64,000 nucleotides of DNA from Alphaproteobacteria bacterium (GCA_965237415.1 CBDEFM010000002.1:1408001-1472000); one strand, 5' to 3'. Numbered from the stretch's first letter, positions 14,583 through 48,674 are shown. Made by a program: numbers and translations. Notes: generated by a model not told the origin, from the sequence alone.

Positions 14583-14600
14583 TGCGTGATGCGGTAGCGT
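14572..14600 (+). promoter_or_regulatory. Putative sigma70 promoter of the vapBC module with three TGATGC direct repeats (probable antitoxin operator)
   Basis: TTGATG-N17-TAGCGT; TGATGC at 14573, 14580, 14587 (7-bp period). Confidence 0.55.
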
Positions 14601-14631
14601 CACTATCCCCGTCTCGATCCGGAATCTTGCG

Positions 14632-15311: not shown

Positions 15312-15459
15312 CTGACGGGGCAGCGGCCGCTGCCGGGGAGAGCCGCTCTCGACCGGACGCCGCAATCTCGCCACATTGACCGCCTACGCGGGGCAGTGAC
15401 AGACTTTAGGTCGATTCGCGGCACCCGCCCGAGTCTCCCCGAGCGATTGAGTAGAGCCC

Positions 15460-16212: not shown

Positions 16213-16227
16213 GTGGAGGTGAGCAAC

Positions 16228-16752: not shown

Positions 16753-17342
16753 TCGCAAAGCTGCGCGGGGCTCTCGACAGCGTGGGCGACGGCTGGGCTG
16801 TCGTCGATGTGGGCGGCGTCGGCTATCTGACCTATTGCTCCGCCGGCACGCTGGCTTCGATGCCCGCGCGGGGGCAGGAGGTGAGTCTCACCGTCGAGAC
16901 CGTGGTGCGTGAAGATCACATCCATCTCTACGGTTTCGCGAGCGAGCAGGAGCGAGACTGGTTCCGTCTGCTGCAAACAGTGCAGAGCGTCGGCGCGCGT
17001 CTGGCGCTCGCGATTCTGGGCGCCTTGCCCGCGGCGGAGCTCGCTGCCTGCATCGCGGCCCAGGATAGAGCTGGGCTCACGCGCGCGCCCGGGGTGGGGC
17101 CTAAGCTCGCGGCGCGCATCCTGAGCGAGCTCGCGGACAAGGCACCGGCCCTGCCGGGTGCGGCTCCCTCGCCCACGACCGCCGGCGGCACGGTAAACGG
17201 CGATGCGATCGCAGCTCTCGTCAACCTGGGCTACCGCCCGACGGAGGCCCACGGTGCCATCTCAGGCGCAGCGCTCACGCTCGGCGATGAGGCCTCCGTC
17301 GAGGCATTGATCCGCGCCGGGCTGAGGGAACTCGCGCAGTGA
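16749..17342 (+). CDS. ruvA: Holliday junction branch migration protein RuvA
   Basis: [43 protein letters not shown]; ATGA overlap with ruvC. Confidence 0.95.
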
Positions 17343-32761: not shown

Positions 32762-35224
32762 TCAGGCCTGTTTCGCCTGGGCCTCACGGATGAGGGCGCG
32801 GAGTCGGCTCGGCGGTAGCGGCAGGCTGTCGATGGTGACGCCCAGGGGCTTGAGCGCGTCCTCGATGGCGCCGGCGATCGCCGGCGGGGCGCCCATGCGC
32901 CCGCCCTCGCCGCCGCCCTTCACTCCGTACTCGGTGAAGGGGGACGGCGTCTCGACGTGGCCGACGACGATATCGACCGGCGTCTCCTTGATGGTCGGGA
33001 TCAGATAGTCGGTCCAGAGCGCGGTCGTGAGCTGGCCGGCCTCGTCGTAGCTGAACTCTTCGAAGAGCGCGGTGCCGATACCGTTCACCGTGCCGCCCCG
33101 GATGTGCCCCTCTAGCGTCATGGGATTGACCATCGTGCCGCAGTCGTGGACGGCGGCGTAGTGGAGAAACTGCACCTGGCCGGTCTCGATATCGACCTCG
33201 ATCACCGGGATGTGACAGCTATGGCCCATGATCGGATAGAAGATCCCCATGTGCCGCTCGTCGGGGTCCGGGAGCGTCGTCACCGGATGGTCGTAGACGT
33301 AGGTCGCGTCGAGCCCGCTGGTGAGGTCGAGGTCCTCGGGCATGCTGAGCCGGTAGTAGTGCGCCTTGTCGGCGAGCTCGGCGATGCTCATCTTCATGCC
33401 GGGCACGCCCTTGACGTGCACCGCGCCGTCCTCCAGCGCGAGATCGCGGACGTCGGCTTCCATGAGATGCGCGGCGAAGCGGAACAGCTTCTCGCGGATC
33501 TTGCCGGCGGCGCCGACGATGGCGCCGGTCACCATGACCGTGAAGCGGCTGCCGCCCGGCCCGGTCGAGTTGAGGCCCTGGTCGGTGTCCGAATAGGTGA
33601 TCTCGATGTCCGCAGGGTCGATGGTGAGCTGCTCGGCGAGCACCTGGGCCGCCACCGTCTCGGGGCTGTTGCCCCAGAATGGCGAATGCAGCGTGACGAA
33701 GGCCTTGCCGGTGGGGTCGATCTTGACCGAGACCGCGTCGGGCGAGCTAGTCCACTCGACGCCCGGTTCCAGATTCCACATCCAGAACTCGGTGGCGCTG
33801 AAGACGCTCCGCTCCTGGCAGGTGGCGACGCCGATGCCGATGTAGCGGCCCTCAGCCCGCGCCTCGGCCTGCTTTGCCCGCCAGCCGTCCACGTCGGCGA
33901 GCTTCAGCGTCTCGTCGAGCACCGCCTGATAGTTGCCGCTGTCGTACATGTTCCCGGTCGGGATCAGATAGGGGAACTGGTCGGGCTGGATGAAGTTCTG
34001 CCGCCGGAGCACGATCCGGTCGACACCGAGCTCGTCGGCAGCCGCGTCCACCAGCCGTTCGATGACGAAGTTCGCGACCTCGGAGCCGAAGCCGCGATAG
34101 GCGCCCTGCTGGCACTTGTTGGTCAGCACGGCGGCCAGATCGATCTCCACGCTGTTGATGCGGTAGGGACCCACGCATTGCGAGAGCGCGTTGCCGTGCT
34201 GGCCGACGCCGAACTGCAGATAGGCGCCATAGTCGTCGATGATCCGGGTCTTCAGGCTGAGCAGCGTGCCGTCCCGCTTGAGCGCGAGCTTGGCGTAGTA
34301 GACGCGGTCCGACGCGTGATTGTCGCAGCTCGTGGTGTTGTCGATCCGGTCTTCCATGAACTTGACCGGCCGCCCCGCCGCGCGCGCCAGCACCGCGGCC
34401 AGCACCGGGACCTTGTGGACGAACATCTTGCTGCCGAAGCTGCCGCCCGCCAGCGTCGGCACGATGTTGAGCTTGTGGGCCGGCACGCGGAGCGTGCTTG
34501 CGATCATCCAGCCGCAGTAGTTGTACATCGACGTATTGCACTGGATGGTGAAGCGGCCCGCGCCGTCATCGAAGCTCGCCACGGCGCCAACCGTCTCCAG
34601 CGGCTGGCCGCCCGAGCGCGGCCAGCGGAAGCGGCGCTCGATTACCAGATCGGCGGCCGCGAAATCCTCCTCCACCGGCCCGAAGGTGAGCTTGCGCTCA
34701 AGCGCGATATTGGTGTCGCCACGCGCGGGGTGCAGGACGGCATCGCCCGCAGACGTCAGCGCCTCTTCGGGGTCGACGACCGGGGGCAACGGTTCGTATT
34801 CGACCTCGATCAGATCGCACGCGTCCTCGGCGATGTAGCGATCCTCCGCCGCCACCGCCGCCACCGCCTCGCCGACATGGCGCACCCGGTCATGGGCGAT
34901 CACCGACTGGAGCACCGGCGGGCTCGCCCAGGTGGGAAGCGGGTCGCAGACTTTCGCGGCATCGGCGCCGGTCATCACGCAGAGAACGCCAGGGAGCGCT
35001 TGAGCCTTGCTCACGTCGATGGAGACGATCCTGGCATGGGCATGGGGGCTCCGCAGCACCGCCGCGTGCGCCATCTCGGGCACGTTGACATCGTCGGCAT
35101 AAATGCCCTTGCCGACGAGGAGGCGCGGGTCCTCCACCCGCTTCATGCTCTTGCCGATCCATTGCAGGTCGCCGCGCGGTTTCTCCCGCTGCCGGCTCTC
35201 GGGGATATGGCCGCGCTCGCTCAT
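32762..35224 (-). CDS. Molybdenum hydroxylase large subunit L1 (xanthine dehydrogenase family)
   Basis: RVEDPRLL, LRSPHAHA, GGSFGSK, GAYRGFG, DCGTMVNP, KGGGEGG; start MSERGH at 35224 overlapping the small-subunit stop. Confidence 0.93.
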   Translation of the reverse strand: MSERGHIPESRQREKPRGDLQWIGKSMKRVEDPRLLVGKGIYADDVNVPEMAHAAVLRSPHAHARIVSIDVSKAQALPGVLCVMTGADAAKVCDPLPTWASPPVLQSVIAHDRVRHVGEAVAAVAAEDRYIAEDACDLIEVEYEPLPPVVDPEEALTSAGDAVLHPARGDTNIALERKLTFGPVEEDFAAADLVIERRFRWPRSGGQPLETVGAVASFDDGAGRFTIQCNTSMYNYCGWMIASTLRVPAHKLNIVPTLAGGSFGSKMFVHKVPVLAAVLARAAGRPVKFMEDRIDNTTSCDNHASDRVYYAKLALKRDGTLLSLKTRIIDDYGAYLQFGVGQHGNALSQCVGPYRINSVEIDLAAVLTNKCQQGAYRGFGSEVANFVIERLVDAAADELGVDRIVLRRQNFIQPDQFPYLIPTGNMYDSGNYQAVLDETLKLADVDGWRAKQAEARAEGRYIGIGVATCQERSVFSATEFWMWNLEPGVEWTSSPDAVSVKIDPTGKAFVTLHSPFWGNSPETVAAQVLAEQLTIDPADIEITYSDTDQGLNSTGPGGSRFTVMVTGAIVGAAGKIREKLFRFAAHLMEADVRDLALEDGAVHVKGVPGMKMSIAELADKAHYYRLSMPEDLDLTSGLDATYVYDHPVTTLPDPDERHMGIFYPIMGHSCHIPVIEVDIETGQVQFLHYAAVHDCGTMVNPMTLEGHIRGGTVNGIGTALFEEFSYDEAGQLTTALWTDYLIPTIKETPVDIVVGHVETPSPFTEYGVKGGGEGGRMGAPPAIAGAIEDALKPLGVTIDSLPLPPSRLRALIREAQAKQA

Positions 35225-35703
35225 GGGCCGTCCTCCCGCATCAGGCGTGCCGCGTGCTGGATCGACTCCACGATGGTCTGATAGCCGGTGCAGCGACAGA
35301 GATTGCCGGAGATGGTGTCGCGGATATCGTCGACGGAGGGGTCGGGGTTCCGCTTCAGGAGCTCGACCGCGGTCATCAGCATCCCCGGCGTGCAGAAGCC
35401 GCACTGAAGGCCGTGCTTCTCCCAGAACGCCTGCTGCACCGGGTGCATCGCGTCGACCGTGCCGAGACCCTCGATGGTCCCGATCTCGGCGCCGTCCGCC
35501 ATTACTGCGAAGGTGAGGCAGGAGCGGGCGGTGACGCCGTCCATCATCACCGTGCAAGAGCCGCAGACGCCGTGCTCGCAGCCGACATGGGTGCCGGTGA
35601 GGCGCAGGTCGTCGCGCAGGAAGTCGCTGAGCAACCGGCGCGGCTCGACCGTGCGCTCGTAGGCCCTGCCGTTGACGGTGACGCCGATCGTCTCGCGCTC
35701 CAT
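35221..35703 (-). CDS. 2Fe-2S small subunit S1
   Basis: [27 protein letters not shown]. Confidence 0.95.
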   Translation of the reverse strand: MERETIGVTVNGRAYERTVEPRRLLSDFLRDDLRLTGTHVGCEHGVCGSCTVMMDGVTARSCLTFAVMADGAEIGTIEGLGTVDAMHPVQQAFWEKHGLQCGFCTPGMLMTAVELLKRNPDPSVDDIRDTISGNLCRCTGYQTIVESIQHAARLMREDGP

Positions 35704-35715
35704 TGCCCTACCCTC

Positions 35716-36573
35716 TCAGGAACAGCGCTCGACGGCCCGGCGCAGCGTCCGCCGGGTGAGCGCGGCGATGGCTTCGCGCCGGTAGGCGGCATCGGCGTGG
35801 CTGTCGCTGTGGGGATCGACCGCGCCCGCGGCCGCGGCTGCCGCGCGATCGAGGCTTGCATCGTCGATGGGCCTGCCGATGAGCGCCTCCTCCGCCGGCA
35901 CAAGCCGCGCCGCGTGCTCGCCGACCCCGCTCGCCACCACGCGCGCCGCCCGGCAGTGGCCGTTGGCAAGCCGCAGCGTCGTCGCGATCACTGCGATGGC
36001 GAAGTCGCCGTGCCGGTTGCTGATCTCGGCGAAGGCCCAGCCGTGGGCGCCGCGGCCGGGAATGCGAGTCTCCACCAGCATCTCGTCCTGCTGGGCCGCG
36101 GTTTCGTAGGTGCCGAGGAAGAAGTCCTCCGCCGCGACCTCGCGGCTGCCGCGCAGGCTCCGCAGCACCAGCGTGGCGCCCACGGCGATCATCACCGCCG
36201 GCGTCTCCGAGGAAGGGTCGGCGTGGCAAAGGTTGCCGCCGAGGGTGCCGCGGTTGCGCACCGTGTGGTGCGCGATGGATTCATAAGCTTCCGTCAGCAG
36301 CGGGCAGCGCGCCCCGACCAGCGGCGAATGCTTGACGTCGTTGTGCCGGGCAAGGGCGCCGATGGCGATGCCGTCGCCATCCTCCCCGATGTAGCCCAGG
36401 TCGGGAACGCGGTTGATGTCGATCAGGCAGGCGGGCTTGACGAGCCTGAGGTTCATCATGGCAATCAGGCTCTGGCCGCCCGCAAGGATCCGGGCATCGG
36501 GGTTGTCGGCTAGCGCTTGTAGTGCGTCGTCGACGCTCGCAGCGCGCAGGTAGCGGAAGCGCGGCGGCTTCAT
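35716..36573 (-). CDS. FAD-binding medium subunit M1
   Basis: MKPPRF.Y, AGGQSL, RNRGTLGGN..HADP, RHGDFA. Confidence 0.93.
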   Translation of the reverse strand: MKPPRFRYLRAASVDDALQALADNPDARILAGGQSLIAMMNLRLVKPACLIDINRVPDLGYIGEDGDGIAIGALARHNDVKHSPLVGARCPLLTEAYESIAHHTVRNRGTLGGNLCHADPSSETPAVMIAVGATLVLRSLRGSREVAAEDFFLGTYETAAQQDEMLVETRIPGRGAHGWAFAEISNRHGDFAIAVIATTLRLANGHCRAARVVASGVGEHAARLVPAEEALIGRPIDDASLDRAAAAAAGAVDPHSDSHADAAYRREAIAALTRRTLRRAVERCS

Positions 36574-37370
36574 CGAGCGAGCGCCGCGCGGACAGCGCGC
36601 TTCGCCATCACGCCGACGAGGTGCGCGCGGTAGTCCTTGTCGGCGTGCAGGTCCTCATTGAGCCCTTCGCTATCCACCGCAATGCCAGAGACCGCCTCTT
36701 CGGTGAAGTTGGCCGCGAGCGCCGCCTCCATTTCCGGCACGCGGAAGACGTGGGACCTGGCGCCCGTGACGGCGAGGCGCACCCTGCCGCCTGCCAGCGA
36801 CACCATCACCGCGACCACGGCGAAGCGCGAAGCCTGGTTGCCGAACTTGGCCCAGCCCGCGCGCTCGGGGATCGGGAAGTCGACCGAGACCACGATCTCG
36901 CCGTCCACCAGCGCGGTCTCGTAAAGCCCGGTGAAGAAGTCGTCGGCGGCAATCGTCCGCCGGTCGGTGTTAACTGTGGCCCCCAGACCGAGCAGGCCAG
37001 CCGGGTAGTCGGCCGCCGGGTCGGCGAAGCAGATCGAGCCGCCGATGGTGCCGCGGTTGCGCACCTGCACGTCGCCGATGGAACCCGCGAGCGCCGCGAG
37101 CGCGGGGATCGCCCCCCTCACCTCGGGCGATTCTGCGACCGCCACGTGCCGGGTCATGGCGCCAATCCGAATATGCCCATCCTGCCGCTCGATCCCGGCC
37201 AGCGCGTCGATGCCGTTGAGATCCACCAGGTCATCACAGGGGGCAAGGCGGAAGCGCATCGTCGGGATCAGGCTCATGCCGCCGGCGAGCAGCCGGCCGT
37301 CCGCGCTCGCGGCGAGACGGGCCTTGGCGTCGTCGAGCGAGGCGGGCCGGTGGTAGGCGAAGGGATACAT
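36570..37370 (-). CDS. FAD-binding medium subunit M2 (CoxM-like)
   Basis: MYPFAYHRP, AGGMSL, VRNRGTIGGS, DPAADYPA, ASRFA, YRAHL; start 37370. Confidence 0.92.
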   Translation of the reverse strand: MYPFAYHRPASLDDAKARLAASADGRLLAGGMSLIPTMRFRLAPCDDLVDLNGIDALAGIERQDGHIRIGAMTRHVAVAESPEVRGAIPALAALAGSIGDVQVRNRGTIGGSICFADPAADYPAGLLGLGATVNTDRRTIAADDFFTGLYETALVDGEIVVSVDFPIPERAGWAKFGNQASRFAVVAVMVSLAGGRVRLAVTGARSHVFRVPEMEAALAANFTEEAVSGIAVDSEGLNEDLHADKDYRAHLVGVMAKRAVRAALAR

Positions 37371-37381
37371 CGTGCGCCCCC

Positions 37382-37882
37382 TCAGCCGCTGGCTTCGCGC
37401 CCGCGCGCGTGGGCGCGCGACGCCTTGGCGCCGGCGGCGATGGATTCGACGATGTTGTGATAGCCCGTGCAGCGGCAGAGATTGCCTTCGAGCTCGCTGC
37501 GGATCGTCGCTTCGTCGGGCGCCTCGTGGCGGTTTGCGATGTCGATCCCCATCATCACGATGCCGGGGGTGCAGAAGCCGCACTGCAGGCCGTGATGCTC
37601 CTTGAACGCGGCCTGCATCGGGTGCAGCCCGTCCGGCCCGGCGATGCCCTCGATGGTGGTGACCTCGGCGCCCTCCAGTTGCACCGCCAGCAGCGCGCAG
37701 GACTTCACCGGCTTGCCGTCGAGGTGGACGGTGCAGGCCCCGCACTGGCTGGTGTCGCAGCCGACATGGGTGCCGGTGAGCCTGAGCTCCTCGCGCAGGA
37801 AGTGGACCAGGAGCGTGCGCGGATCGACCGCCGCCGCGACCTCCCGGCCGTTCACGGTGAAGGTGACCGACGCCTTGTCCAT
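37382..37882 (-). CDS. 2Fe-2S small subunit S2 (CoxS-like)
   Basis: [34 protein letters not shown]. Confidence 0.95.
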
Positions 37883-37910
37883 CGCTTCTCCCTCGCGACC
37901 GATCGCGGCG

Positions 37911-40280
37911 CTAGTGCTGCGCCCGCCTCGCGTCCTCGATGGCGCGCCAGATCTTCTTGGGCGTCATCGGCTGCGTGATCTGGCGCACGCCGAGATGCCA
38001 GAGCGCATCGATCACCCCGTTGCAGATGCAGGCGGGCGCGCCGATGGTGCCGCTCTCGCCCGCACCCTTGGCACCCAGCGGATTGCCGAGCGCCCTGGTG
38101 AAGTGCGAATCGAGGCCGAAGGAGGGCACGTCCTCGGCGTGGGGCACGGCGTAATCCATGAACGTGCCCGAGAGGTACTGGCCGGTCTCGGAATCGTAGG
38201 CGCATTCCTCCATCAGCGCCTGGCCGATGCCCTGGACCAGACCGCCGTGAACCTGCCCCTCAAGCACCATGGGATTGATGACCGTGCCGACATCGTCCAC
38301 CGCCCAGTAGTTGCGGAGCGTCACGGCGCAGGTCTCGGGATCGACGAGCACGACGCAGAGATGAACCGCCGAGGGATAGGTGCAATCGGCGGGGTCGAAG
38401 AACGAGGTCTCCTCCAGGCCGATCTCCAGGTCCGACGGCCGGTCGCCGGAATGGTAGGCGGCGTTGGCCACCTCCGAGAACGCGAGCCTCCTGTCCGTGC
38501 CCTTGACCGTGAACTCGCCGTCGGCGAGGTCGAGGTCTTCGGGCGCGCACTCCATCATGTGCGCCGCGAGCCGCTTGGCCTTCGCCACCACCCGGTCGGC
38601 GGCGGTGTAGACCGCCATGCCGGCGGTGGAAAGCGAGCGCGAGCCCCAGGTGCCGATGCCCATGGGCACCCGGTCGGTATCGCCCTCGACCACGTCGATG
38701 TGGTCGATGTCGCAGCCGAGGCGATCGGCGGCGATCTGGCTCCAGGTGGTTTCGTGGCCCTGCCCGTGGCTGTGGCTGCCGGCGAACACGGTGATGCGCC
38801 CGTCCGGATGGACGCGCACGCTGGCGACGTCGTAGCAGCCGACCTTGGCGCCGAGGTCGTTCATCATCTTCACCGGGCCGGCGCCGGCCATGTCGAAGAA
38901 GGCCGAGATGCCGATGCCCATCCACTGCCCTTCTGCCCTGAGCGCCGCCTGCTCCGCGCGGAGCGCATCGTAGTCGCAAAGCGCCTTGATCTTCGCCATG
39001 AGCGCGGGCGGATCGCCGGAATCGTAGGTGATGCCGAGGGCGGTCTGGTAGGGGAACTTCTCGGGGGGGATCAGGTTGCGGGCGCGGAGCTCCAACGGGT
39101 CGATGCCCATCTCCTGCGCGCCGTTCTCGATCATGCGCTCCACCTGATAGACCGCCTCGGGCCGGCCGGCGCCGCGATACGCGTCCACCGGCGTCGCGTT
39201 GGTGTAGACGGCGCGCACGGTGGTGTGGATCGCCGGGATGTCGTAGGCGAGCGAGAGCATGGTGAAGTGGTAGGCGTTGGTAATGCTCGCCTGCCACTGG
39301 CTCTCGTAGGCGCCGAAGGCGGCCAGGGTCTCGAACTTCACGCCGAGGATCTTGCCGCTCTCATCGAATCCCATGCGGCCGACCGTGTGGTGGTCCCTGG
39401 CGTGGGTGTCGCCCAGCAGGCATTCGGAGCGCGTGCCCACCCAGCGCACCGGCCGGTCGCAGACGATGGCGCCCCAGAGCACCAGCGCCTCCTCGGGATA
39501 GTGGTAGAGCTTCATGCCGAAGCCGCCGCCGACGTCCGGTGCGATGACCCTGAGCTTGTGCTCGGGGATGTGCAGCGACTTGGTGAAGTAGCGGCGCACG
39601 ATGTGCGGCGCCTGGTTGGTGGTCCACACCGTGTAGCGGTCGTTGACCCGGTCGTAGTGGCCCAGATAGCAGCGGGGCTCCATCGAGGCGGCGGTGATGC
39701 GGTTGGAGGGCACCGCGACCTCGGTCACGTGATGGGCCTTCGCCAGCGCGGCCTCGGTCTCCTCCTTGAGCCCATGCTCGGTGACCAGCACCTCGTTGGT
39801 GCCGAAGCCGGGATGCACGAGCGGGGTCTCGGGGTCGAGCGCGCTCGCGGTGAGGATGTTGGCCGGCTTCTCCTCATACGTGACCTCGACCGCCTCGGCG
39901 GCATCGAGGGCCTGATGACGGTCCTCGGCGACGACCATGGCGACGATCTCACCGACGCAGCGGACCACGCCGTCGACGCAGATGAGCGGCCGGTAGGCGG
40001 TACGGGCGTCCGCGCCGCTCCTGTCCTTGACCGGCCAGACGCCCTCGGCCTCACCATGGCCGGCTTGGGTCCAGTCCTTGCCGGTGAGCACCGAGAGCAC
40101 CCCCGGCATGGATGCGGCCCGCGACGTATCGACGCGCGTCACCGCAGCATGGGCATGGGGATTGCGGACGAAGGCGGCATGGGCAATCGGCTGGTCGAGG
40201 GTCACATCCTCGACGAAGCGGCCGCGCCCCCGGAGGAAGCGCTCGTCCTCCCGGCGCAGAATCGCCTGACCGACGTACAT
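37911..40280 (-). CDS. Molybdenum hydroxylase large subunit L2, form II CoxL-like
   Basis: [21 protein letters not shown], active-site loop [23 protein letters not shown]. Confidence 0.93.
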
Positions 40281-40320
40281 GGACCCCCTCCCTGCGCGCG
40301 TGCCGCTCTTGCCGGCGGCC
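40235..40320 (-). repeat. Repeat unit B, copy 1 (L2 upstream region and first 15 codons); copy 2 at 42463-42546
   Basis: atcgcctgaccgacgtacatgg(a)ccccctccc..gcgcgcgt.ccgctctt.ccggcggc shared with 42489-42546. Confidence 0.9.
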
Positions 40321-40608
40321 GCCCCGCGCTTGCGCCTTGCTCTCTATCGAATACCTTATCAGGATCAGTCGCTCTCGCACCACTGAGCAAGAGCACCGAA
40401 GCCGCAGAATGAGCAGCAGGGTTTCCGAGCCAGCGTTCCGGATCGTTATGACCGTCCTCGACGAAATCACCAATGACCACGCCAACAACCAGAAGGCTGC
40501 TTTAGCATCCCCCGCTCTAACCAGTCACTGGGGTCGCGGTGTCCCACGATCTCGACCTACCACACCCACTTTTTCATGCAGCTCCAACGAAAGCACTCGT
40601 GCATTCTT

Positions 40609-41397
40609 CTATTTATCCTTGTTGGTCCCAGCTTCCTTGCTCAAGATAAACACTTTGTAAGGCTCAATCTCCGCATAAGCCTTGGACAACCCAACCCACC
40701 CCTTATTGTGAAACAGGCTGCTGAGAGTGCAAAATGCCTCCCTCAAACGAAGTAGTTTCTCGCCCACAACCTCATGTTCTAAACCCGCCGCCAGTTTACT
40801 TTGGATTACTTGGAGAGCCGGATCATTCAAGACTTCATTGGAATCCAGATCAAGCTTCGTCTGTGCAGCACCAGCTCCAACAATCGGCAACTGAGTTCCG
40901 ACATATCTTTTTGGCTGCCACCAATGGTTCTTCCCTGAAAATTCTATTATCGCAAAAGGAACATCAACATTTCCTTCTGTTGGAACACCAACATTCTCTT
41001 TTGCAATTACCTTGCCCCAATCGCTAAAGTCGCCGGCTTCATTAATCTCCAAGTAATTCTTTTGCCACTCGGCCCAAATTGACTCAGGCTCATATGCATA
41101 TCTGACCTTTTCGAGCGAAGGTGCCGATTCCTCCTTTCCGAACAGAGCCTTATTGACCCGAGCCCACCCCTCCCCGAACGTCAACGATCGCGCGGAATAA
41201 TATTCATCTTTCTCGAAGCCTCCAGAAATCGCTTCAATAGCATAGGGCCCCACACAAACGTCCTGTATCAGTCCCATATTAGTTAACGAAAGGTCAACTG
41301 CCTGTTCATCCGCTACTGAAATTGCTGGTATCACCAGTACAAGGCCCATTGCCGCCCTAGCATAAATCTTGCGGAGTTCTGTTCCCAAAGCACTCAC
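40609..41397 (-). CDS. Hypothetical exported protein
   Basis: Long ORF in low-GC DNA; GTG 41397 with GGGAG RBS 4 nt after the upstream stop; signal-like RKIYARAAMGLVLVIPAISVA-DEQ; no recognisable family. Confidence 0.65.
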   Translation of the reverse strand: MSALGTELRKIYARAAMGLVLVIPAISVADEQAVDLSLTNMGLIQDVCVGPYAIEAISGGFEKDEYYSARSLTFGEGWARVNKALFGKEESAPSLEKVRYAYEPESIWAEWQKNYLEINEAGDFSDWGKVIAKENVGVPTEGNVDVPFAIIEFSGKNHWWQPKRYVGTQLPIVGAGAAQTKLDLDSNEVLNDPALQVIQSKLAAGLEHEVVGEKLLRLREAFCTLSSLFHNKGWVGLSKAYAEIEPYKVFILSKEAGTNKDK

Positions 41398-41401
41398 GGC
41401 T

Positions 41402-41803
41402 TTACTCCCGAAGCAGCTCAGAGACAAGACCTGCCACCAAATAGGTAAATGCAGGCAACATAGCTCCATATACAAAGTGCCGAACTAATGATCCCGTTCG
41501 GATTCCAAAAGCCACAATCGCCGCAAAAATTGAGGAATAAACCACAATAGCAATCAATAGATACAGCCCTAATAGATTTAGATCGATGAAGCCAATATCA
41601 ACATGCCCTTGGGCAGAGCCGACTATCACAATTGCAAAATGCAATACTAGGCATCCCCAAAGTGCCACAAGGAACCGAGAAAGAATGTTGTGGGTACTAC
41701 CGTCACCACGAAGAAACTCGACTAGAAGGCTGATCATGCTTGACGCTGTCACGTCTTGCTTCCTTGCCTCACACTTGTTATCGGTTCCCCGGACACGCCA
41801 CAC
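41402..41803 (-). CDS. Hypothetical membrane protein (about 3 TM)
   Basis: Three hydrophobic stretches; probably co-transcribed with the downstream ORF. Confidence 0.6.
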   Translation of the reverse strand: MWRVRGTDNKCEARKQDVTASSMISLLVEFLRGDGSTHNILSRFLVALWGCLVLHFAIVIVGSAQGHVDIGFIDLNLLGLYLLIAIVVYSSIFAAIVAFGIRTGSLVRHFVYGAMLPAFTYLVAGLVSELLRE

Positions 41804-42172
41804 GGGCTTACCACCTCTCCACAGCCTCCTGTGGTCGCATACATTTTCAACGTCAGTGCAAAATGCTCAGAAATATACAACGCAAATTCTAGGCTAATAC
41901 CATAAAGTTGAGAACAGTCAAAAAACAATCCCTCTGAGATTTATCCAGTCCAATTAAAGTCCTCCACACCTATTGCGAGACAATATAGCAAGACCGCCAG
42001 GAAATTCAAGCACTCGTTGTGCGTAGGACAGCTTCAAGACGAGAAGAAATAGAACTCCGCATTCCTCTGCGCCGCGTGTAACACTTGTCGCACGGATTCT
42101 GACATTTTCGCGCGGCGCTGGTAAGCGCGCGAACTGTGGGGTGCGCACCACGGTGTCGAACGGCGCCGGTAC

Positions 42173-42508
42173 TCACCCCCCGTTCGCCTCCGCCTCGCGG
42201 ATCATGCCGCGCAGCACCTTGGGCGTGAGCGGGAGCGAGTCCACCTTGACGCCCAAGGGCTTGAGCGCGTCCTCGACCGCCGCGGCGATCGCCGGCGGCG
42301 CGCCCATGCGCCCGCCTTCGCCGCCGCCCTTGATGCCGTACTCGGTGAAGGGCGACGGCGTCTCCACATGGCCCACGCGGATGTGGACCGGGGTCTCCAT
42401 CAGGGTCGGGTGCAGATAATCGCTCAGCAGCACGTTCTGTAGCTGGCCGTTCTCGTCATAGTGGAAGTGCTCGTCCGCCCAGCGCAGGATCGCCTGACCG
42501 ACGTACAT
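42173..42508 (-). pseudogene. Chimeric Mo-hydroxylase mini-gene: L2 N-terminus fused in frame to an L3-type C-terminus (111 aa)
   Basis: MYVGQAILR(WA)D matches the L2 start; EHFHYDENGQ...GMIREAEANGG matches the last ~99 aa of L3; RBS GGAGG retained. Confidence 0.88.
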
Positions 42509-42663
42509 GGCCCCCTCCCCGCGCGCGTACCGCTCTTCCCGGCGGCTGACCGACACTTGTGTGTCGTTTCTCCGTTCAACAATATCAGCGCCGGACGTCA
42601 TAGCAACATGGTTGCCTGCTACTGCCCGCGCGGCGGCCAACTGCAACAGTGTGAGGATTGGAA

Positions 42664-43182
42664 ATGGGTATTTTACTTAGACTTCTGGTTCGTGCCTTCC
42701 TCCCGACTCCGCGGCGGAATAAACGGCGCGGAGCTTCTCGCCGAACAAGAGGATTGAGGCCCGGAGCAACGATTAGTGGAAAGGCATATGTCATCGACGG
42801 CGACACGATTAGAGTCTCCGGTGAAAGGATACGCCTCTCCGGCCTCGACGCACCCGAGGTTGATCAGGTGGCGAAGCACCAGGACGGCTACTGGTTCAAG
42901 CAGGGGCAGCGCATCAAGAGCGCGCTGATAAATGAGATCGGGGGGAAGGTCGTCAGGCTCACCGTCGAGGGATACGACAAATATGACCGAGTCCTCGGCA
43001 TCGTGACCTGCGATGGCCGGGATATCGGCGAGTGGCTCGTCTGGAACGGCTACGCGATTGCCGCTTTCGGAGAGCGGTATAGACACCTGGAACTCGACGC
43101 TCAACGAGCGCAGCGCGGGATGTGGGCGCACGCCGCCCGATATGACCCGAGGGACTGGCGGCGCATGACATTGAACAGCTGA
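42664..43182 (+). CDS. Thermonuclease (SNase-like) family protein
   Basis: VIDGDTI, IRLSGLDAPE, DKYDRVLG, AQRAQRGMW, P.DWRR; start 42658 or 42664. Confidence 0.88.
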   Translation: MGILLRLLVRAFLPTPRRNKRRGASRRTRGLRPGATISGKAYVIDGDTIRVSGERIRLSGLDAPEVDQVAKHQDGYWFKQGQRIKSALINEIGGKVVRLTVEGYDKYDRVLGIVTCDGRDIGEWLVWNGYAIAAFGERYRHLELDAQRAQRGMWAHAARYDPRDWRRMTLNS

Positions 43183-43325
43183 TTGACAAGCCATCGGGAG
43201 GCTGGCGGCAAGCCGCCTGCCTCCCGCTATTGCATCGGCGCCGCCCGGTCCGGTGAACGCCAGGGGCGTCCGTGCTGGTGGAACCTGGGCGCGGAAACAG
43301 GGGCGATGGACCAAGAAAGCGGCGC

Positions 43326-43627
43326 TCAGCCCCCGTTCTGCTCCGCCTCGCGGATCATGCCGCGCAGCACCTTGGGCGTGAGCGGGAGCGAATCCACCTT
43401 GATGCCGAGCGGCTTGAGCGCGTCTTCGACGGCCGCGGCGATGGCCGGCGGGGCGCCCATGCGCCCGCCTTCGCCGCCGCCCTTGATGCCGTACTCGGTG
43501 AAGGGGGACGGCGTCTCCACATGGCCCACGCGGATGTCGACCGGCGTCTCCATCAGGGTCGGGTGCAGGTAGTCGCTCAAGAGCACGTTCTGAAGCTGCC
43601 CGTTCTCGTCATAGTGGAAGTGCTCGT
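43326..43627 (-). repeat. Repeat unit C, copy in L3 (last ~300 nt); second copy at 42173-42474
   Basis: Ungapped manual alignment, about 21 mismatches in about 300 nt. Confidence 0.92.
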
Positions 43628-45797
43628 AGAGGGCGCTGCCGATACCGTTCACGGTGCCGCCCCGCACGTGGCCGGCGAGGGTCATCGGGTTGACCATGGT
43701 GCCGCAGTCGTGGACGGCCACGTAGTCGAGGAAGTCGACCTTTCCGGTCTCTATATCCACCTCGACCACCGGGATGTGACACATGTGGCCGACGATCGGA
43801 TAGAAGATGCCGAGGTCGGAACGATCCTCCGACGGCATGGTCGTGACCGGATGGTCGTAGACGTAGGCCGCGTCGATGCCGCTGGTGAGGTCGTGATCCT
43901 CCGGCAGGTCCAGCCTGAAGTAGTGGGCGTGGAGCGCCACCTCGGCGAGGGTCTTCTCCTTGCCGGGCACGCCCTGGACGCCGATCGAGCCCGCGCGGAA
44001 TTCGAGATCGCTCGGATCCGCCTCCAGCATGTGGCTGGCGACGCGCAGCATCTTCTCCTTGATCACGTCGGCGGCGCCGCTGACGGCGCCCGCGATCATC
44101 ACCGTGAACCGGCTGCCGCCCGGCCCCGACGAGTTGAAGCCCTTGTCGGAATCGGCGTAACCGACCGAAATATCAGCGGGATCTATCTCCAGCTTCTCGG
44201 CCAGCACCTGCACCGCCATCGTCTCGGGGCTGTTGCCCCAGAAGGGCGCGTTCAGCGTGATGAACGCCTTGCCGGTGGGATCGATGTTGATGGCGACACT
44301 CTCCGGCGAGCTCGAGAGCGTGAAGCCCGGTGTCTCGTTCGGGTTCCACATCCAGAACTCGGTGGCGCTGAAGACGCTCCGCTCCTGGCAGGTGGAGATG
44401 CCGATGCCGATGTAGCGGCCTTCCTTCCGCGCCTCGGCCTGCTTCTTGCGCCAGCCGTCGTAGTCGATCATGCCGAGCGCCTCGTCGAGCACGGCCTGAT
44501 AGTTGCCGCTGTCGTACATGTTGCCGGTCGGCATGATGTAGGGGAACTGGTCCTTCTCGATCAGGTTCAGCCTACGCATCTCCACCGGGTCGATGCCGAG
44601 CTCCTCGCAGGCCGCGTCGACCAGGCGCTCGATCACGAAGTTGCCGACCTCGGAGCCGAAGCCGCGATAGGCTCCCTGCTGGCACTTGTTGGTGAGCACG
44701 GCGGTGAGGTCGACCTCGACGCTGTTGATCTTGTAGGGGCCGGTCACCTGCGCCATCGCATTGCCGTGCTGGCCGACGCCGTACTGGAAGTAGGCGCCGT
44801 AGTCGTCGATCACCTTGAGCCGCATGCTCAGCATCGCGCCGTCGCGCTTCAACGCGAGCTTGGCGTCGTAGAGGCGGTCGGAGCCGTGGGCGTCGCCGCT
44901 CGTCATGTTGTCGATGCGGTCTTCCAGATACTTGACCGGCCGGCCGGCGGCGCGGGCGAGCGTGCCGGCGAGCGTGCAGACCTTGTGGCAGAAAAGCTTG
45001 CTGCCGAAGCTGCCGCCGGCGTCGGTCGGCACGATGTTGAGCCGGTGTGGATCGACCTTGAGCGAGACCGCGATCAGCCAGCCGACGTAGTTGTACATCG
45101 ACGTGTTGGCATGGATCGTGAACTTGCCCGTGCCCCGGTCGTAGTGGGCGGTGGCGCCGACGGTCTCGATCGGCGTGCCGCCTGAGCGCGGCCAGCGCAG
45201 CCTGCGCTCGATCACGAGATCGGCGGCGGCGAAATCCTCGTCCACCGTGCCGAAATTAATCGTGCGCTGGAGCGCCACGTTGGTATCGCCGCGTTCGGGA
45301 TGGAGCACGGCATCGCCGGTCGATGTCACTGCCTCTTCGAGATCGACGACCGCCGGCAGCGGATCGTACTCGACCTCGATCAGCTCGCAGGCGTCCTCGG
45401 CGATATAGCGGCTGTCCGCCACGACGGCGGCGACCGCCTCGCCCACGTGGCGCACCTTGCCCACGGCGATGCAGTACTGCGGCGTCGGCGGGCTCGAAAA
45501 ATCCGCGCACGGCCCCGTGACCTCCGCCGCCTCGGCGCCGGTCATGACGCAGAGCACGCCGGGCAGCGCCTCGGCCTTCGACTTGTCGATGCTCACGATG
45601 CGGGCGTGGGCATGGGGGCTGCGCAGCACCGCGGCATGCGCCATGTTGGGCAGCGACACGTCGTCCGCATAGGTGCCAGAGCCGGTGAGCAGGCGGGTGT
45701 CCTCTACCCGCTTCATGCTGTGCCCGATGGCGAAGTACTTGGACTTGGGCTTCTCGCGCTGACGCGATTCGGGGATGTAATGGCGTTCGCGGGTCAT
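43326..45797 (-). CDS. Molybdenum hydroxylase large subunit L3 (paralogue of L1)
   Basis: Same motifs as L1: IPESRQREKP, NTSMYNY, NKCQQGAYRGFGSE, CQERSVFSATEFWMWN, KGGGEGG; start MTRERH at 45797. Confidence 0.93.
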   Translation of the reverse strand: MTRERHYIPESRQREKPKSKYFAIGHSMKRVEDTRLLTGSGTYADDVSLPNMAHAAVLRSPHAHARIVSIDKSKAEALPGVLCVMTGAEAAEVTGPCADFSSPPTPQYCIAVGKVRHVGEAVAAVVADSRYIAEDACELIEVEYDPLPAVVDLEEAVTSTGDAVLHPERGDTNVALQRTINFGTVDEDFAAADLVIERRLRWPRSGGTPIETVGATAHYDRGTGKFTIHANTSMYNYVGWLIAVSLKVDPHRLNIVPTDAGGSFGSKLFCHKVCTLAGTLARAAGRPVKYLEDRIDNMTSGDAHGSDRLYDAKLALKRDGAMLSMRLKVIDDYGAYFQYGVGQHGNAMAQVTGPYKINSVEVDLTAVLTNKCQQGAYRGFGSEVGNFVIERLVDAACEELGIDPVEMRRLNLIEKDQFPYIMPTGNMYDSGNYQAVLDEALGMIDYDGWRKKQAEARKEGRYIGIGISTCQERSVFSATEFWMWNPNETPGFTLSSSPESVAINIDPTGKAFITLNAPFWGNSPETMAVQVLAEKLEIDPADISVGYADSDKGFNSSGPGGSRFTVMIAGAVSGAADVIKEKMLRVASHMLEADPSDLEFRAGSIGVQGVPGKEKTLAEVALHAHYFRLDLPEDHDLTSGIDAAYVYDHPVTTMPSEDRSDLGIFYPIVGHMCHIPVVEVDIETGKVDFLDYVAVHDCGTMVNPMTLAGHVRGGTVNGIGSALYEHFHYDENGQLQNVLLSDYLHPTLMETPVDIRVGHVETPSPFTEYGIKGGGEGGRMGAPPAIAAAVEDALKPLGIKVDSLPLTPKVLRGMIREAEQNGG

Positions 45798-46279
45798 TGC
45801 CCCTCTCCCTGCATTCGTTCGGCCGCGGCCTGCACCGCCTCGACGATTGTCTGGTAGCCGGTGCAGCGGCAGAGGTTGCTCGACATCGCCTCGCGAATCT
45901 CGTCGAGGCTCGGATTGGGCGTGCTCTCCAGCAACTCGACCGCCGTCATCAGCATGCCCGGCGTACAGAAGCCGCATTGCAGGCCGTGCTTCTCCCAAAA
46001 CGCCTCCTGCAGCGGGTGCATGTCGTCGACACCGCCGAGGCCTTCGATGGTGCGGACCTCAGCCCCCGCCGCCTGGACGGCGAGCATCAGGCAGGAGCGT
46101 GCGGCCTCGCCGTTGACGAGCACGGTGCAGGCGCCGCAGACCCCGTGCTCGCAGCCGACATGGGTGCCGGTGAGCCCGAGCTTCTCGCGCAGGAAGTCGC
46201 TGAGCAGCATGCGCGGCTCGGCGTCGGCCGCGCGGCGCTCGCCATTGACGACAAGCTCGACGGTACGTGGCGTCGTCAT
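45794..46279 (-). CDS. 2Fe-2S small subunit S3
   Basis: [27 protein letters not shown]; ATG 46279 after GGAGG. Confidence 0.95.
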   Translation of the reverse strand: MTTPRTVELVVNGERRAADAEPRMLLSDFLREKLGLTGTHVGCEHGVCGACTVLVNGEAARSCLMLAVQAAGAEVRTIEGLGGVDDMHPLQEAFWEKHGLQCGFCTPGMLMTAVELLESTPNPSLDEIREAMSSNLCRCTGYQTIVEAVQAAAERMQGEGQ

Positions 46280-46291
46280 CTCCACCTCCCT

Positions 46292-47155
46292 TCAGTGGCA
46301 GCGGGAGGCGGCGTCGGCAAGCGCGCGCCGGGTCAGGCTGCGCACCAGATCGCGCCGATAGTCCGCGTCCGCGTGAAAATCTTCGCTGGGGTCGATGCTG
46401 TCCGCCGCCGCGGCCGCGGCCTGGCGAAAGGCATCGTCGCCCGGTGCCGCGCCTGCGAGCGCATCCTCGGCAGCACGCGCCCGGTGCGGCCCGTCGCCCA
46501 CGCCGGCGCAGACGATCCGCGCGCCAGTGCAGGCACCGTCCGCAAGCTCGACCGTCGCACCTACGGCCACGTAGGCGAAGTCGCCCTTGCGCGGGCTCAC
46601 CTCGTAAAAGGCCGCGCCCTGGCCGGCCGGCGCCTGCGGCACGCGGACCTCGACGAGAAGCTCGTTCGCCTCGGCTGCCGTGGAGAGCGTACCGGTGAAA
46701 AAGTCCTCGGCCCCGACGGTGCGCGTGCCGCCTGCGCTCCGCAGCACCATCTCAGCGCCGCTCGCCACGGCCACCGCCGGCATCTCCGACGCCGGGTCGT
46801 TATGGCAGAGGTTGCCGCAGAGCGTGCCGCGATTGCGGATCGGGCCGTGGGAAACATAGGGATAGGCGGCGGCCATCAAGGGCGAGGCCCCGCGCACGGC
46901 ATCCGCCTCCAGCACTGCCTTGTGGCGGGCGAGCGCGCCGATCCTGAGCTGCCCATCCTCCAGAGTCACATAGTCGAGGCCGGGCAGGCGGTTGATATCG
47001 ATCAGCACGTCCGGGTGCAGCGCCCGCAGGTTCAGCATCGGCACCAGGCTCTGGCCGCCCGCGATCACCTTGGCCGCCTCGCCGTGCTCGGCAAGCAGCG
47101 CCAGTGCCTCCTCCAGGGTCTCCGGACAGCAGTAGTCGAACGGTGGCGGTTTCAT
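46292..47155 (-). CDS. FAD-binding medium subunit M3
   Basis: MKPPPFDY, AGGQSL, IRNRGTLCGN, RKGDFA. Confidence 0.93.
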   Translation of the reverse strand: MKPPPFDYCCPETLEEALALLAEHGEAAKVIAGGQSLVPMLNLRALHPDVLIDINRLPGLDYVTLEDGQLRIGALARHKAVLEADAVRGASPLMAAAYPYVSHGPIRNRGTLCGNLCHNDPASEMPAVAVASGAEMVLRSAGGTRTVGAEDFFTGTLSTAAEANELLVEVRVPQAPAGQGAAFYEVSPRKGDFAYVAVGATVELADGACTGARIVCAGVGDGPHRARAAEDALAGAAPGDDAFRQAAAAAADSIDPSEDFHADADYRRDLVRSLTRRALADAASRCH

Positions 47156-47221
47156 CCAGTATCTCCCTTGTTCCGTCCCGCCGCCCGGTGGCGAGCCGGC
47201 TACGTTCTTCTGCCAATCAGT

Positions 47222-48454
47222 CTAGAGCAAGCCCCCGCCCTCTTCCAAGCCGAGCACCGCACGGCCGTACTGCGCACCCGCGATATCGAAGTTGAACGAG
47301 ATGTGCGCGTTGATGGCGTGGATATCGCGGAAGAACCGTTGGATCGGATTGCGCTCGTAAAGCGCGGCACCGCCGCTCGCCTCGAACAGGATGTCTACCG
47401 CCCGGCGGCATTCGCTGGCGGCATAGGCGCCGTTGCGGCGGAACCGTGTCTTCGTCGTGAAATCGGGCACCGTGCCTGCCGCCCCGTGCGCCATCGCCTC
47501 GTCGCAGGCGGCCCGCATGAGGGCACCCGCGGCCTCGATCCTGACCGCGGCCTCGGCAATCTTGATCTGGATTGGCACGTGATCGGCGACGCGGGTGCCG
47601 CTGTAGGAACCGACGCGCCGGCGGGTTGCCGCGACGTAGCCCTCCAGCGCGCCCTCCGCCGTGCCGAGGGCGCAGCCGGCGAGCACGTAGGGGAACATCG
47701 TGAAGACGGGGAGCCTGTAGAGCGCGGCATCGTTGACGGCCAGGCCAGGCCCGCGGCACCCCTTGGTCTCGTCGACCGCGAGCGTGCGGTGCGCGGGCAC
47801 GAAGACCTCCTCGGCCGCCACGTCGTTGCTCCCGGTTCCGCGCAGGGCCGTGGCATGCCAGGTATCGATGATCTCGTAGTCGCGGCGGGGGAGGATGAAC
47901 ATTCGATGCTCGGGTGGGTCGGTCTCCGCAACGATCCCGCCCAGCATCGTCCAGGCGCTGGGATCGATCCCGCTCGCGAAGGGCCAGCGGCCGGAAATGA
48001 CGTAGCCGCCATCGACCGCGCGCACCTTGCCCGCCGGGAAGATCAGCGAGGCCGCGATCAGCACGTCCGGGTCCGGCCCCCAGACCTCGTCCTGCACCTC
48101 CGGCTCGAAGAGCGCGAGCATCCAGTGGTGGGCGAGCAAATTGGTCAGGTTCCAGGAGCTGGACGGGCAGGCACGGGCGATGATGGCGCCGAGATCGATG
48201 AGAATGCCGTAGTCGAGCTCGCCACCGCCGACGCGGGCCGGCTGGAGCACGCGGAAGAGCCCGTTCTCATGGAACGCGGCCTCGGTCTCGGCCGGCAGGC
48301 GGCGCAGCGCTTCGGTCGCAGCGGCACGTTCGCACAGGCTCGGCAACAGTGCCTCGGCCCGCTGCAGAACCGCGTCTCGCGCATCGGCACGCGCGGCATC
48401 CGGGGTATCCGCGCGCGCGGCATCCGGACGATCCGTCGCCATGCTTTCGTTCAT
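47222..48454 (-). CDS. Acyl-CoA dehydrogenase-fold flavin-dependent monooxygenase (HsaA/C2-hpaH-like oxygenase component)
   Basis: LFRVLQP..GG.E, ACPSSSW, SGRWPFASG, DTW...LRGTGS, QRFFRDIH...HI. Confidence 0.85.
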   Translation of the reverse strand: MNESMATDRPDAARADTPDAARADARDAVLQRAEALLPSLCERAAATEALRRLPAETEAAFHENGLFRVLQPARVGGGELDYGILIDLGAIIARACPSSSWNLTNLLAHHWMLALFEPEVQDEVWGPDPDVLIAASLIFPAGKVRAVDGGYVISGRWPFASGIDPSAWTMLGGIVAETDPPEHRMFILPRRDYEIIDTWHATALRGTGSNDVAAEEVFVPAHRTLAVDETKGCRGPGLAVNDAALYRLPVFTMFPYVLAGCALGTAEGALEGYVAATRRRVGSYSGTRVADHVPIQIKIAEAAVRIEAAGALMRAACDEAMAHGAAGTVPDFTTKTRFRRNGAYAASECRRAVDILFEASGGAALYERNPIQRFFRDIHAINAHISFNFDIAGAQYGRAVLGLEEGGGLL

Positions 48455-48597
48455 GATGCCGCCCGCTGTCGTGGAAAAGCCCGAGGGCAGGGTTCGGCTC
48501 TATGCCCCTTTGCGGAGATTGGCACTGTCGGGCGTCCAGATTTGCCGGTCGCGGACGGCGCGGCCCGCCGCCGGCACAAGCCAGAAGTTGCGATCGC

Positions 48598-48674
48598 TGG
48601 TCGGAGTGAGTGGACTTGAACCACCGACCCCCGCCTCCCGAAGACGGTGCTCTACCAAGCTGAGCTACACTCCG
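48598..48674 (-). tRNA. tRNA-Pro (anticodon CGG)
   Basis: Minus strand CGGAGTGTAGCTCAGCTTGGTAGAGCACCGTCTTCGGGAGGCGGGGGTCGGTGGTTCAAGTCCACTCACTCCGACCA: cloverleaf, TTC loop, encoded CCA. Confidence 0.96.

Follow-up and report, generated by a model that had tools for sequence, protein, structure and literature searches.

Tandem cargo slots joined by a chimera of their flanking genes in an alphaproteobacterial chromosome: a probable integrase-free hotspot doubled at a microhomology

Introduction

The minimal mobile elements (MMEs) of Neisseria, as they are defined in PMC3082526 after Snyder et al. 2007 and Saunders & Snyder 2002, have their spread ascribed in that account to homologous recombination in the flanks. 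Homology-facilitated illegitimate recombination (HFIR), known in Streptococcus pneumoniae, Acinetobacter baylyi and Pseudomonas stutzeri, adds foreign DNA by an illegitimate join at a short, GC-rich microhomology of 3–10 bp beside homologous sequence, and its products usually carry a deletion similar in size to the insertion (PMC3240628). [quoted passage not shown] The core defence hotspots (cDHS) of Pseudomonas aeruginosa, which span 1–224 kb with a median of 26 kb, are proposed to be transferred via conserved flanks, and PMC10250203 presents the way in which such hotspots are built as an open question. Here we describe a locus of related character in a 64,000-nucleotide stretch of the chromosome of an Alphaproteobacteria bacterium (GCA_965237415.1, CBDEFM010000002.1:1408001-1472000; hereafter the window), in which the spacer between two molybdopterin-hydroxylase large-subunit genes, L3 and L2, holds two cargos in tandem, separated by a chimera of the two flanking genes.

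The spacer, or slot, shares with MMEs the conserved flanking genes, the alternative whole-gene cassettes and the lack of mobility genes of its own, and it falls under the definition given in PMC3082526. It differs in that it belongs to uncultured Alphaproteobacteria and its states are compared across species representatives, not strains, and in that a promoter-like block is present in all filled alleles and a chimeric flank-to-flank junction doubles the slot. The junction lies at a microhomology within the 3–10 bp class described for HFIR in PMC3240628, with 6 + 5 exact bases in a 12-nt match. By comparison, it is a natural product in which there is no deletion, both arms are duplicated and the homologous crossover has not been located. 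As proposed for the T6SS and Rhs arrays in PMC5361080, a module has been added, not replaced, a 3' fragment of the conserved upstream gene has been retained and an array has been built; the modules here, however, are not effector–immunity pairs, and the scar joins the start of the downstream flank to the end of the upstream flank, copying both arms. Consistent core flanks, lower GC, defence cargo and the lack of an obvious single mobile-element class are features in common with the cDHS of PMC10250203, whereas the cassettes here are single and of 1.4–2.2 kb, with clear defence genes in the cargos of two of six relatives and one further toxin–antitoxin set. Small cassettes in a tandem array at one site also recall an integron, a candidate that we rejected: no intI is present among the 41 window open reading frames (ORFs) scanned, no attC-like structure was found, and the left cargo ends are not conserved. 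A narrow literature search found no description of a chimera of downstream and upstream flanks that doubles such a slot, which does not show that none exists.

Two slots and a chimeric junction between L3 and L2

In the direction of transcription (minus strand) the locus reads L3, a nuclease gene of the SNase family, a chimera of the L2 start and the L3 end, a low-GC cargo of two genes, and L2. L3 and L2 are paralogues, and both are intact in the window. The elements of this layout are:

43326-45791, minus strand: L3, molybdopterin-hydroxylase large subunit of the CoxL/XdhA family (Pfam Ald_Xan_dh_C, MoCoBD_1 and MoCoBD_2), upstream flank of the slot
43320-43627, minus strand: L3 3'-end repeat, original copy and left homology arm, including the microhomology at 43616-43627 (alignment)
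43183-43325, no strand: 143-nt spacer that separates L3 from the convergent nuclease gene and contains a terminator-like 13-bp GC-rich hairpin without a T run
42658-43182, plus strand: cargo A, SNase/thermonuclease-family nuclease (Pfam SNase, 9e-13), antisense to the operon
42463-42559, minus strand: L2-start repeat within the chimera, right arm of slot A (88% and 84% repeats)
42463-42474, no strand: junction microhomology, ACGAGCACTTCC on the minus strand, 6 + 5 nt exact with L2
42173-42508, minus strand: chimeric ORF of 111 aa, L2 codons 1–13 in frame with the last 98 codons of L3
40333-42172, minus strand: cargo B, 1.84-kb low-GC (0.49) insert with two co-oriented genes
40235-40332, minus strand: L2-start repeat, original copy and right homology arm, including the microhomology at 40235-40246
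37911-40280, minus strand: L2, second molybdopterin-hydroxylase large subunit (Pfam, NCBIfam), downstream flank of the slot

Positions 42167-42466 are a second copy of 43320-43619 (300 nt, 92% identity), covering the 3' end of L3 to 6 nt beyond its stop codon. The L2-start repeat, about 97 nt long, spans L2 codons 1–15 and ~52 nt upstream; 40235-40292 matches 42463-42520 over 58 nt with 88% identity, and 40284-40332 matches 42511-42559 over 49 nt with 84% identity, offset by a 1-nt indel. The order and coordinates of these units are as an original prediction for this stretch had given them, and all of them are confirmed, with repeats of 92% and 84–88%.

The two repeats meet in a 12-nt motif, which on the plus strand is GGAAGCGCTCGT at 40235-40246 in L2 and GGAAGTGCTCGT at 42463-42474 in the chimera and at 43616-43627 in L3; read on the coding strand, the chimera and L3 both have ACGAGCACTTCC and L2 has ACGAGCGCTTCC. 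Across L2 and L3 as a whole, identity of at least 11 in 12 occurs at 170 of 5,791,345 position pairs (2.9e-5), and between the first 60 nt of L2 and the last 400 nt of L3 the junction pair is the only such match among 19,061, confirming the predicted fusion at a 12-bp motif shared by L2, L3 and the chimera. The repeats and the junction are real and non-random, far beyond chance.

The chimera is 111 aa long from its ATG, or 157 aa from an upstream TTG. Its L3 part starts with HFHYDENGQ and ends at an L3-type stop codon, its 13 L2-derived codons show three differences from L2, two of them non-synonymous (RWADE), and a Shine-Dalgarno-like GGGGAGGGGG stands in front of it. Pfam detects in it a MoCoBD_2 fragment below threshold. 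No inverted repeats were found at the cargo ends in the repeat analysis of the window. An integrase or transposase Pfam domain was likewise found in none of the 41 window ORFs scanned (some short intergenic gaps lay outside the scan), in none of the three window cargo ORFs and in none of ten cargo ORFs of relatives, in line with the original prediction, which saw no such enzyme.

Base composition sets the insert apart, the GC content being 0.44–0.53 over about 40350-42150 and 0.64–0.73 in the flanks. Besides the adjoining 42601-42900, this is the sole region of 300-nt scale in the 64 kb that falls below 0.58 GC. The 143-nt spacer at 43183-43325 folds at -72 kcal/mol (z = -3.19), and none of 200 shuffles folds equally well. 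Two other origins were considered for the insert region and rejected. For a tRNA-targeted island, the nearest tRNA gene (Pro-CGG, 48598-48674) lies ~5 kb from the slot and there is no integrase. For a plasmid origin, megablast of 36000-47200 against PLSDB returned 16 records, none covering 80%, with distant matches to the 2Fe-2S and large-subunit genes only.

The slot in related genomes

One genome per species was scanned with L3 as the query, yielding 76 loci. L2 is the next large-subunit gene after L3 in 12 of them, in each of which L3 is at least 88% identical in amino acids. The slot is empty in six (L003, L005, L008, L010, L011 and L019), where 38–62 nt with a GC content of 72–81% separate the L3 stop codon from the L2 start, and it is filled in the other six, where the gap measures 1.4–2.2 kb. 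The variability among relatives that the original prediction had put forward as its test is thus seen directly, and the L3–L2 spacer is a true hotspot with variable cargo. In an all-against-all blastn comparison, the six cargos show no nucleotide similarity to one another or to the window cargos; their GC content is 47–48% in five and 65% in L009. They encode:

L001: a 379-aa protein of no family
L002: a GmrSD_N protein (PADLOC NsnA 4e-66, PD-T4-2_A 2e-45) and a RiboL-PSP HEPN protein
L004: a GmrSD enzyme in two ORFs (PADLOC Orf5 3.5e-131)
L009: HigB, an HTH antitoxin and a Phd-like protein (65% GC)
L013: a 343-aa protein of no family
L014: a protein with a VHL beta domain

Known defence genes are therefore clear in L002 and L004, to which the toxin–antitoxin set of L009 may be added, and three of the eight cargos (those of the six relatives and the two of the window) are without a known family. 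The slot is a small target in which new candidate defence genes may be sought. Relative to the operon, six of the eight cargos run antisense. Genomes with empty and with filled slots are intermingled on a tree built from the flanking genes (4450 columns). No shared left cargo end was found, and the left ends alter the last L3 codons in L002, L004, L013 and L014.

Among the slot states that had been predicted, the empty one, those with other cargos and one with the nuclease only were all encountered, the last in L016 and without L2; a slot holding only the low-GC cassette was not seen in the 12 relatives. L016 is one of five more close loci (with L006, L007, L015 and L018) that have no L2 within 10 kb. 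In it, a nuclease homologue follows directly after L3 in the same orientation as in the window, and is itself followed by the DNA that comes after L1, the large-subunit gene of a further cluster, in the window.

Several side observations concern the slot and its surroundings. CGACTGATCC stands directly after the L3 stop codon in the empty slots of L010 (12466-12480) and L011 (12469-12483), and the same 10 nt occur in the spacer of the promoter-like block preceding L2 (block B below; window 40363-40375), which suggests that some empty slots may derive from filled ones by deletion. The GmrSD-type gene at L004:12612-14494 is split into ORFs of 145 and 468 aa, for which a frameshift, an internal stop codon or faulty assembly could be responsible. 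The stretch L016:10001-14200 is without L2, S2, M2, M1 and L1 and resumes at window position 32749 downward, possibly because the DNA between the paralogous ends of L3 and L1 was deleted; the L3 match of L016 breaks at residue ~520, where either a frameshift or faulty sequencing could be the cause. Low GC (0.47–0.53) extends over 0.6–0.7 kb after the L3 stop codon in L006:12501-13200 (with small ORFs of 87 and 97 aa), L007:12501-13200 and L015:12501-13100, where L2 is not downstream, suggesting that foreign DNA is drawn to the 3' flank of L3 in further contexts as well.

The L3 piece of the chimera and chimeras on other contigs

The L3 piece of the chimera differs from the L3 end of the window at 21 sites in 300 nt, which fall at 5, 1 and 15 sites on the three codon positions and affect 16 codons synonymously and 3 non-synonymously (dS 0.26, dN 0.023). 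Against 13 functional L3 ends its dN/dS is 0.03–0.11, and the 78 pairs of functional ends have a median of 0.062 and a range of 0–0.155. Private sites number 3 of 285, and functional orthologues have 0–8. In identity it stands at 93.7% to the window L3 end, 94.4% to L015 and 94.0% to L003. A tree of 285 nt pairs the window L3 with L015 (support 93/94) and leaves the chimera outside this pair in a polytomy. Judged by these comparisons, the L3 piece looks like an ordinary working allele of the L3 pool of the species group, not like a decaying resident copy. Such working-allele character is predicted by a merging of slot alleles from two lineages, and equally by later recombinational overwriting.

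A search of 5.8 billion proteins together with their cluster listings recovered the exact window protein (P0153) and the same junction on five other public contigs, where it was seen as encoded proteins of two sequence types:

P0159 (112,755-nt contig) and P0161 (21,258-nt contig): intact, 111 aa; start as in the window, L3 part with the residues D, I and Q of the window's own L3, not H, V and A
P0031 (17,235-nt contig) and P0151 (12,382-nt contig): intact, 111 aa; second start type
P0053 (4,685-nt contig): P0031 type, frameshifted

Further, shorter ORFs are orphan L3 3' ends without the full gene, among which P0035, P0063 and P0118 are decayed; P0154–P0156 and P0163 are orphans of 86 aa. The presence of the junction on these contigs means that the join either is older than this genome and has diversified, or has formed repeatedly at the same microhomology. 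RWADE is common to P0159, P0161 and the window, although three residues distinguish their L3 parts, suggesting an older junction whose L3' arm has been exchanged since. None of the five other contigs agrees in length with those listed for the cluster of ORF262, the second gene of cargo B (15 of 17 members listed), a faint hint that the second slot of the other chimera carriers may hold a different cargo. The contig of P0153 measures 4,035,330 nt, a length also listed for the contig of a member of the ORF262 cluster (P0020).

A promoter-like block on the L2 side of filled slots

A sequence block lies ~75–100 nt upstream of the L2-type ATG in all eight filled units, that is, in six relatives and both units of the window, and in none of the six empty slots. 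Its form is T/G-G-G/T-TGC-N, a gap of ~12–13 nt, and CTG-A/C-TA-W-N-S-T, with variants in L013 and L009, and one may see in it a -35-like hexamer (TTGCTA, TTGCCA or GGTGCC), a spacer of 16–17 nt and a TG-extended -10-like hexamer (TATTGT, TAAGCT or TAAGGT). The window copies, identified by alignment and regular expression, are:

42579-42608, minus strand: promoter-like block A, before the chimera; TGTTGCTA, 12-nt gap, CTGATATTGT
40353-40382, minus strand: promoter-like block B, before L2; TGGTGCGA, 12-nt gap, CTGATAAGGT

The pattern, which was derived post hoc from these very sequences so that only its absence elsewhere is independent information, matches the window exactly twice (at 42608 and 40382, minus strand), with 0.01 matches expected per shuffled 64 kb. 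In the close loci, ~400 kb in all, matches to the full pattern and to its 10-nt core are confined to the L001, L002, L004 and L014 slots, save for a stray core match in L012. No conserved hairpin or inverted repeat was found in the block: RNAalifold gives a 5-bp stem only, without covariation, which is also present in empty slots. Rfam returned no match at E up to 1 over 40000-43700, and a structured RNA or riboswitch at the slot was rejected on this ground. A generic scan for sigma-70 consensus did not flag block A or B. We infer that the block is a putative promoter that would maintain transcription of the L2 cluster in filled alleles. The placement of the slot inside an operon, as originally predicted, applies to the empty alleles only, whereas filled alleles carry the promoter-like block before L2.

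Proposed mechanism and alternative explanations

We consider it probable that the locus is an integrase-free hotspot of the MME kind in which one microhomology join made two adjacent slots. Related species would swap small cassettes, often of low GC and often of defence type, through recombination in the conserved flanks. A single illegitimate, in-frame join at the 12-nt microhomology (6 + 5 exact), from L2 codon 10–13 to L3 codon -100, would have duplicated both arms, the L3 end on one side and the block with the L2 start on the other, and turned one slot into two, of which slot A at present holds the SNase-family nuclease and slot B a very rare two-gene low-GC cassette. The join could have arisen by HFIR of incoming linear DNA, with a homologous crossover in L2 (or, in mirror image, in L3) at one end and the illegitimate join at the opposite one; by excision of a slot allele as a circle via the microhomology, followed by a single crossover in the homology of block and L2 start; or by an unequal exchange between sisters, after which an allele was replaced. 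These routes would yield exactly the same product, and the sequence cannot separate them. Thereafter the slots would keep swapping cargo by homologous recombination, an exchange at slot B probably overwriting the L3' arm from a working L3. We favour an older junction with continuing exchange, since it would account at once for an L3' arm that is fresh, for L2-derived codons that have drifted and for the existence of several chimera types.

On this evidence the interpretation in the original prediction, in which two slot alleles were merged by a microhomology join, appears largely right. Junction statistics, the signature of purifying selection in the L3 piece and its placement outside the pair of window L3 and L015 speak for a merge. 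The occurrence of the chimera on five other contigs indicates, however, that the merge is not private to this genome, being older than it or recurrent beyond it, and it need not have brought the present low-GC cargo. If the proposal is correct, the locus keeps a legible scar of one hotspot-building step, in which an allele was added, not replaced, and the arms for further exchange were duplicated. Growth of a slot without a dedicated insertion enzyme would be a concrete, testable building step for integrase-free hotspots.

Several observations weigh against this proposal. A single-unit donor allele with the low-GC cargo between L3 and L2 was not seen in the 12 relatives; sliding identity over 7.4 kb of L2 and downstream DNA reveals no recombination breakpoint or switch of nearest relative (closest relative ~94%); and the variable sites of the L3 end form a reticulate pattern with no clear crossover. 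No deletion is seen in the recipient, although one is usual, if not obligatory, in HFIR products. Random illegitimate entry leaves unexplained both how new low-GC genes first join these arms and why all eight filled units keep the block at the L2 side. The position between L3 and L2 is established for the window chimera, not for the chimeras of the other contigs.

The tandem might instead have been born within a single genome, where an unequal exchange between sister chromosomes at the microhomology would produce two copies of the same cargo, one of them being replaced later by homologous recombination in the L3' arm and L2. This is a sub-variant of the proposed mechanism, the sole difference being the involvement, or not, of foreign DNA in the illegitimate join, and we regard it as possible, though less likely than not. 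That the chimera predates its present L3' sequence, as RWADE shared by the window, P0159 and P0161 over L3' parts that differ at three residues implies, is in its favour, as is, weakly, the absence of the other chimera contigs among those listed for the ORF262 cluster, given that their slot B cargo may differ. The differences from the window's own L3, however, start ~28 nt from the junction and span 300 nt, which would confine the replacing crossover to a very short stretch, and two identical cargos were seen in no genome. That two co-occurring strains with different slot alleles were misassembled into a tandem deserves hardly any credence: although the two L3 ends differ by 6–8%, as those of two strains or species in one sample might, the join is in frame, it lies within 6 + 5 identical bases, far below any assembler overlap or k-mer, and the same junction on five further contigs with different sequences rules out a one-off misassembly.

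We think it unlikely that a site-specific recombinase, integron-like or other, whose gene lies elsewhere in the genome mobilizes the cassettes, with the block as its recombination site and not a promoter. Such an enzyme would fit a block that is present in eight of eight filled and none of six empty units and nowhere else in the 64 kb, with a 10-nt core confined to the slot in ~400 kb of close loci bar the one L012 match; the uniform size of the cargos (1.4–2.2 kb), their uniform GC in five of six and the group II introns just after L3 in L015 point the same way. The block, by comparison, lacks a conserved hairpin or inverted repeat (the 5-bp stem being found in empty slots too) and an Rfam match, the left cargo ends are unconserved, some cutting the last L3 codons, no integrase is present among the 41 window ORFs scanned, and the chimera joins two genes at a microhomology, not at the block. 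Selection for the 111-aa chimera as a gene, for instance as a small protein that consists of the C-terminal part of CoxL, would explain its intactness in five of six sequence variants including that of the window, its own promoter-like block with the Shine-Dalgarno-like GGGGAGGGGG, and its low dN/dS. It strikes us as quite improbable, however, in view of the frameshift in P0053, the decay of the L3' orphans P0035, P0063 and P0118, the non-synonymous nature of two of the three differences in the 13 L2-derived codons, the sub-threshold MoCoBD_2 fragment that is all Pfam sees, and the fact that repeated overwriting from a functional L3 would explain a low dN/dS equally well.

Returning to the microhomology join, we offer one extension of it tentatively, as a conjecture that is more likely to fail than to hold. 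Flank-to-flank joins could be a general means of self-extension of integrase-free hotspots, duplicating both homology arms and turning a slot into an array of independently exchangeable slots in which the L3' arm is rewritten at each exchange and the block keeps the operon expressed. The inner L3' arm would then never decay, because each exchange rewrites it from the working L3. If true, self-extension would be a recombination-only functional analogue of the integron, with the chimera types as the footprint that it leaves at the level of populations.

Cargo genes of the window

The cargo A nuclease matches staphylococcal nuclease structures (PDB 1snd_A, E = 3.8e-4) and keeps in the alignment the DGDT, D-x-PE and DKY-x-R motifs, which we take to be catalytic. 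Its homologue at the same place in L016 (L016:12582-13085) is 72% identical in amino acids, with a dN/dS of 0.19 and a dS of 1.04, indicating that the nuclease is under purifying selection between the two loci. This dS compares with 0.28 between the L3 piece of the chimera and the L016 L3 end, suggesting that the nuclease alleles are much older than their flanks or were separately acquired. Homologues with 40–43% identity, annotated as 'thermonuclease family', occur on 2412 plasmid records, 1695 of them conjugative. The PADLOC match of the nuclease is weak only (SNc+LTD, 7e-7).

The features of cargo B are:

41982-42009, minus strand: sigma-70-like promoter of cargo B, TTGAAT, 16 nt, TATATT, with TG before the second hexamer (consensus scan alone)
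41402-41803, minus strand: ORF133, cargo B gene 1, at most 133 aa, hydrophobic by eye, no known family
40609-41397, minus strand: ORF262, cargo B gene 2, 262 aa, N terminus signal-peptide-like by eye, no known family

Their GC content at third codon positions is 0.44 (ORF133) and 0.47 (ORF262), against 0.92 for L2 and L3. Neither has a match in Pfam, PADLOC or NCBIfam. Among 5.8 billion proteins, ORF133 has 8 and ORF262 has 6 homologue clusters, and a profile of ORF262 finds 9 representatives among 1.84 billion. One homologue of each (P0172 for ORF133, P0005 for ORF262) is listed on a contig of 1,914 nt with the same source, suggesting that the two genes move as a pair. In plasmids, cargo B has no DNA match and ORF262 no protein match. 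An exact protein look-up of the nuclease and ORF133 gave none under the start codons tried.

Gene clusters and neighbouring regions

The window is core chromosome, encoding parC, recO, ruvC, ruvB, tolB, ftsH, folP, thiD, typA and argJ (Pfam) and two tRNA genes at a GC content of 68%. It contains three molybdopterin-hydroxylase clusters, all on the minus strand; each of L1, L2 and L3 has the three CoxL/XdhA domains in Pfam, and none reaches an NCBIfam equivalog cut-off, all matches being below it. The genes around the slot are:

47222-48454, minus strand: acyl-CoA-dehydrogenase-like gene, in the cluster with L3
46292-47155, minus strand: M3, cluster 3
45794-46285, minus strand: S3, cluster 3
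37382-37882, minus strand: S2, cluster 2
36570-37382, minus strand: M2, cluster 2
35716-36573, minus strand: M1, cluster 1, followed by S1 and L1 (to 32762)

The 981-aa mechanical ORF for L1 (32762-35707) overlaps S1 (35221-35715) in a different frame. Its Pfam domains begin at residue 199, which places the true start ~170–190 codons further in; it is not a fusion protein.

The acyl-CoA-dehydrogenase-like gene (47222-48454), located between tRNA-Pro and M3, is present in the window, L006, L007, L009 and L015 and was not found by tblastn in L001–L005, L010–L014 and L019, a second presence/absence polymorphism beside the same clusters. In L015 (7147-22457, compared with window 43337-48643), only a 5.3-kb block of this gene (ACAD), M3, S3 and L3 is common, at 96.5% identity. 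The homology begins inside the tRNA-Pro(CGG) gene of the window (48598-48674), with no intact tRNA there in L015, and stops at the L3 tail. Downstream of L3 in L015 lie two RT genes of group II introns in tandem (13390-14874 and 15301-16785), followed in the list of mobile genes by a DDE transposase of IS6 type and by istA/istB-like genes of IS21, so that this state looks like a block transfer into a region rich in mobile elements.

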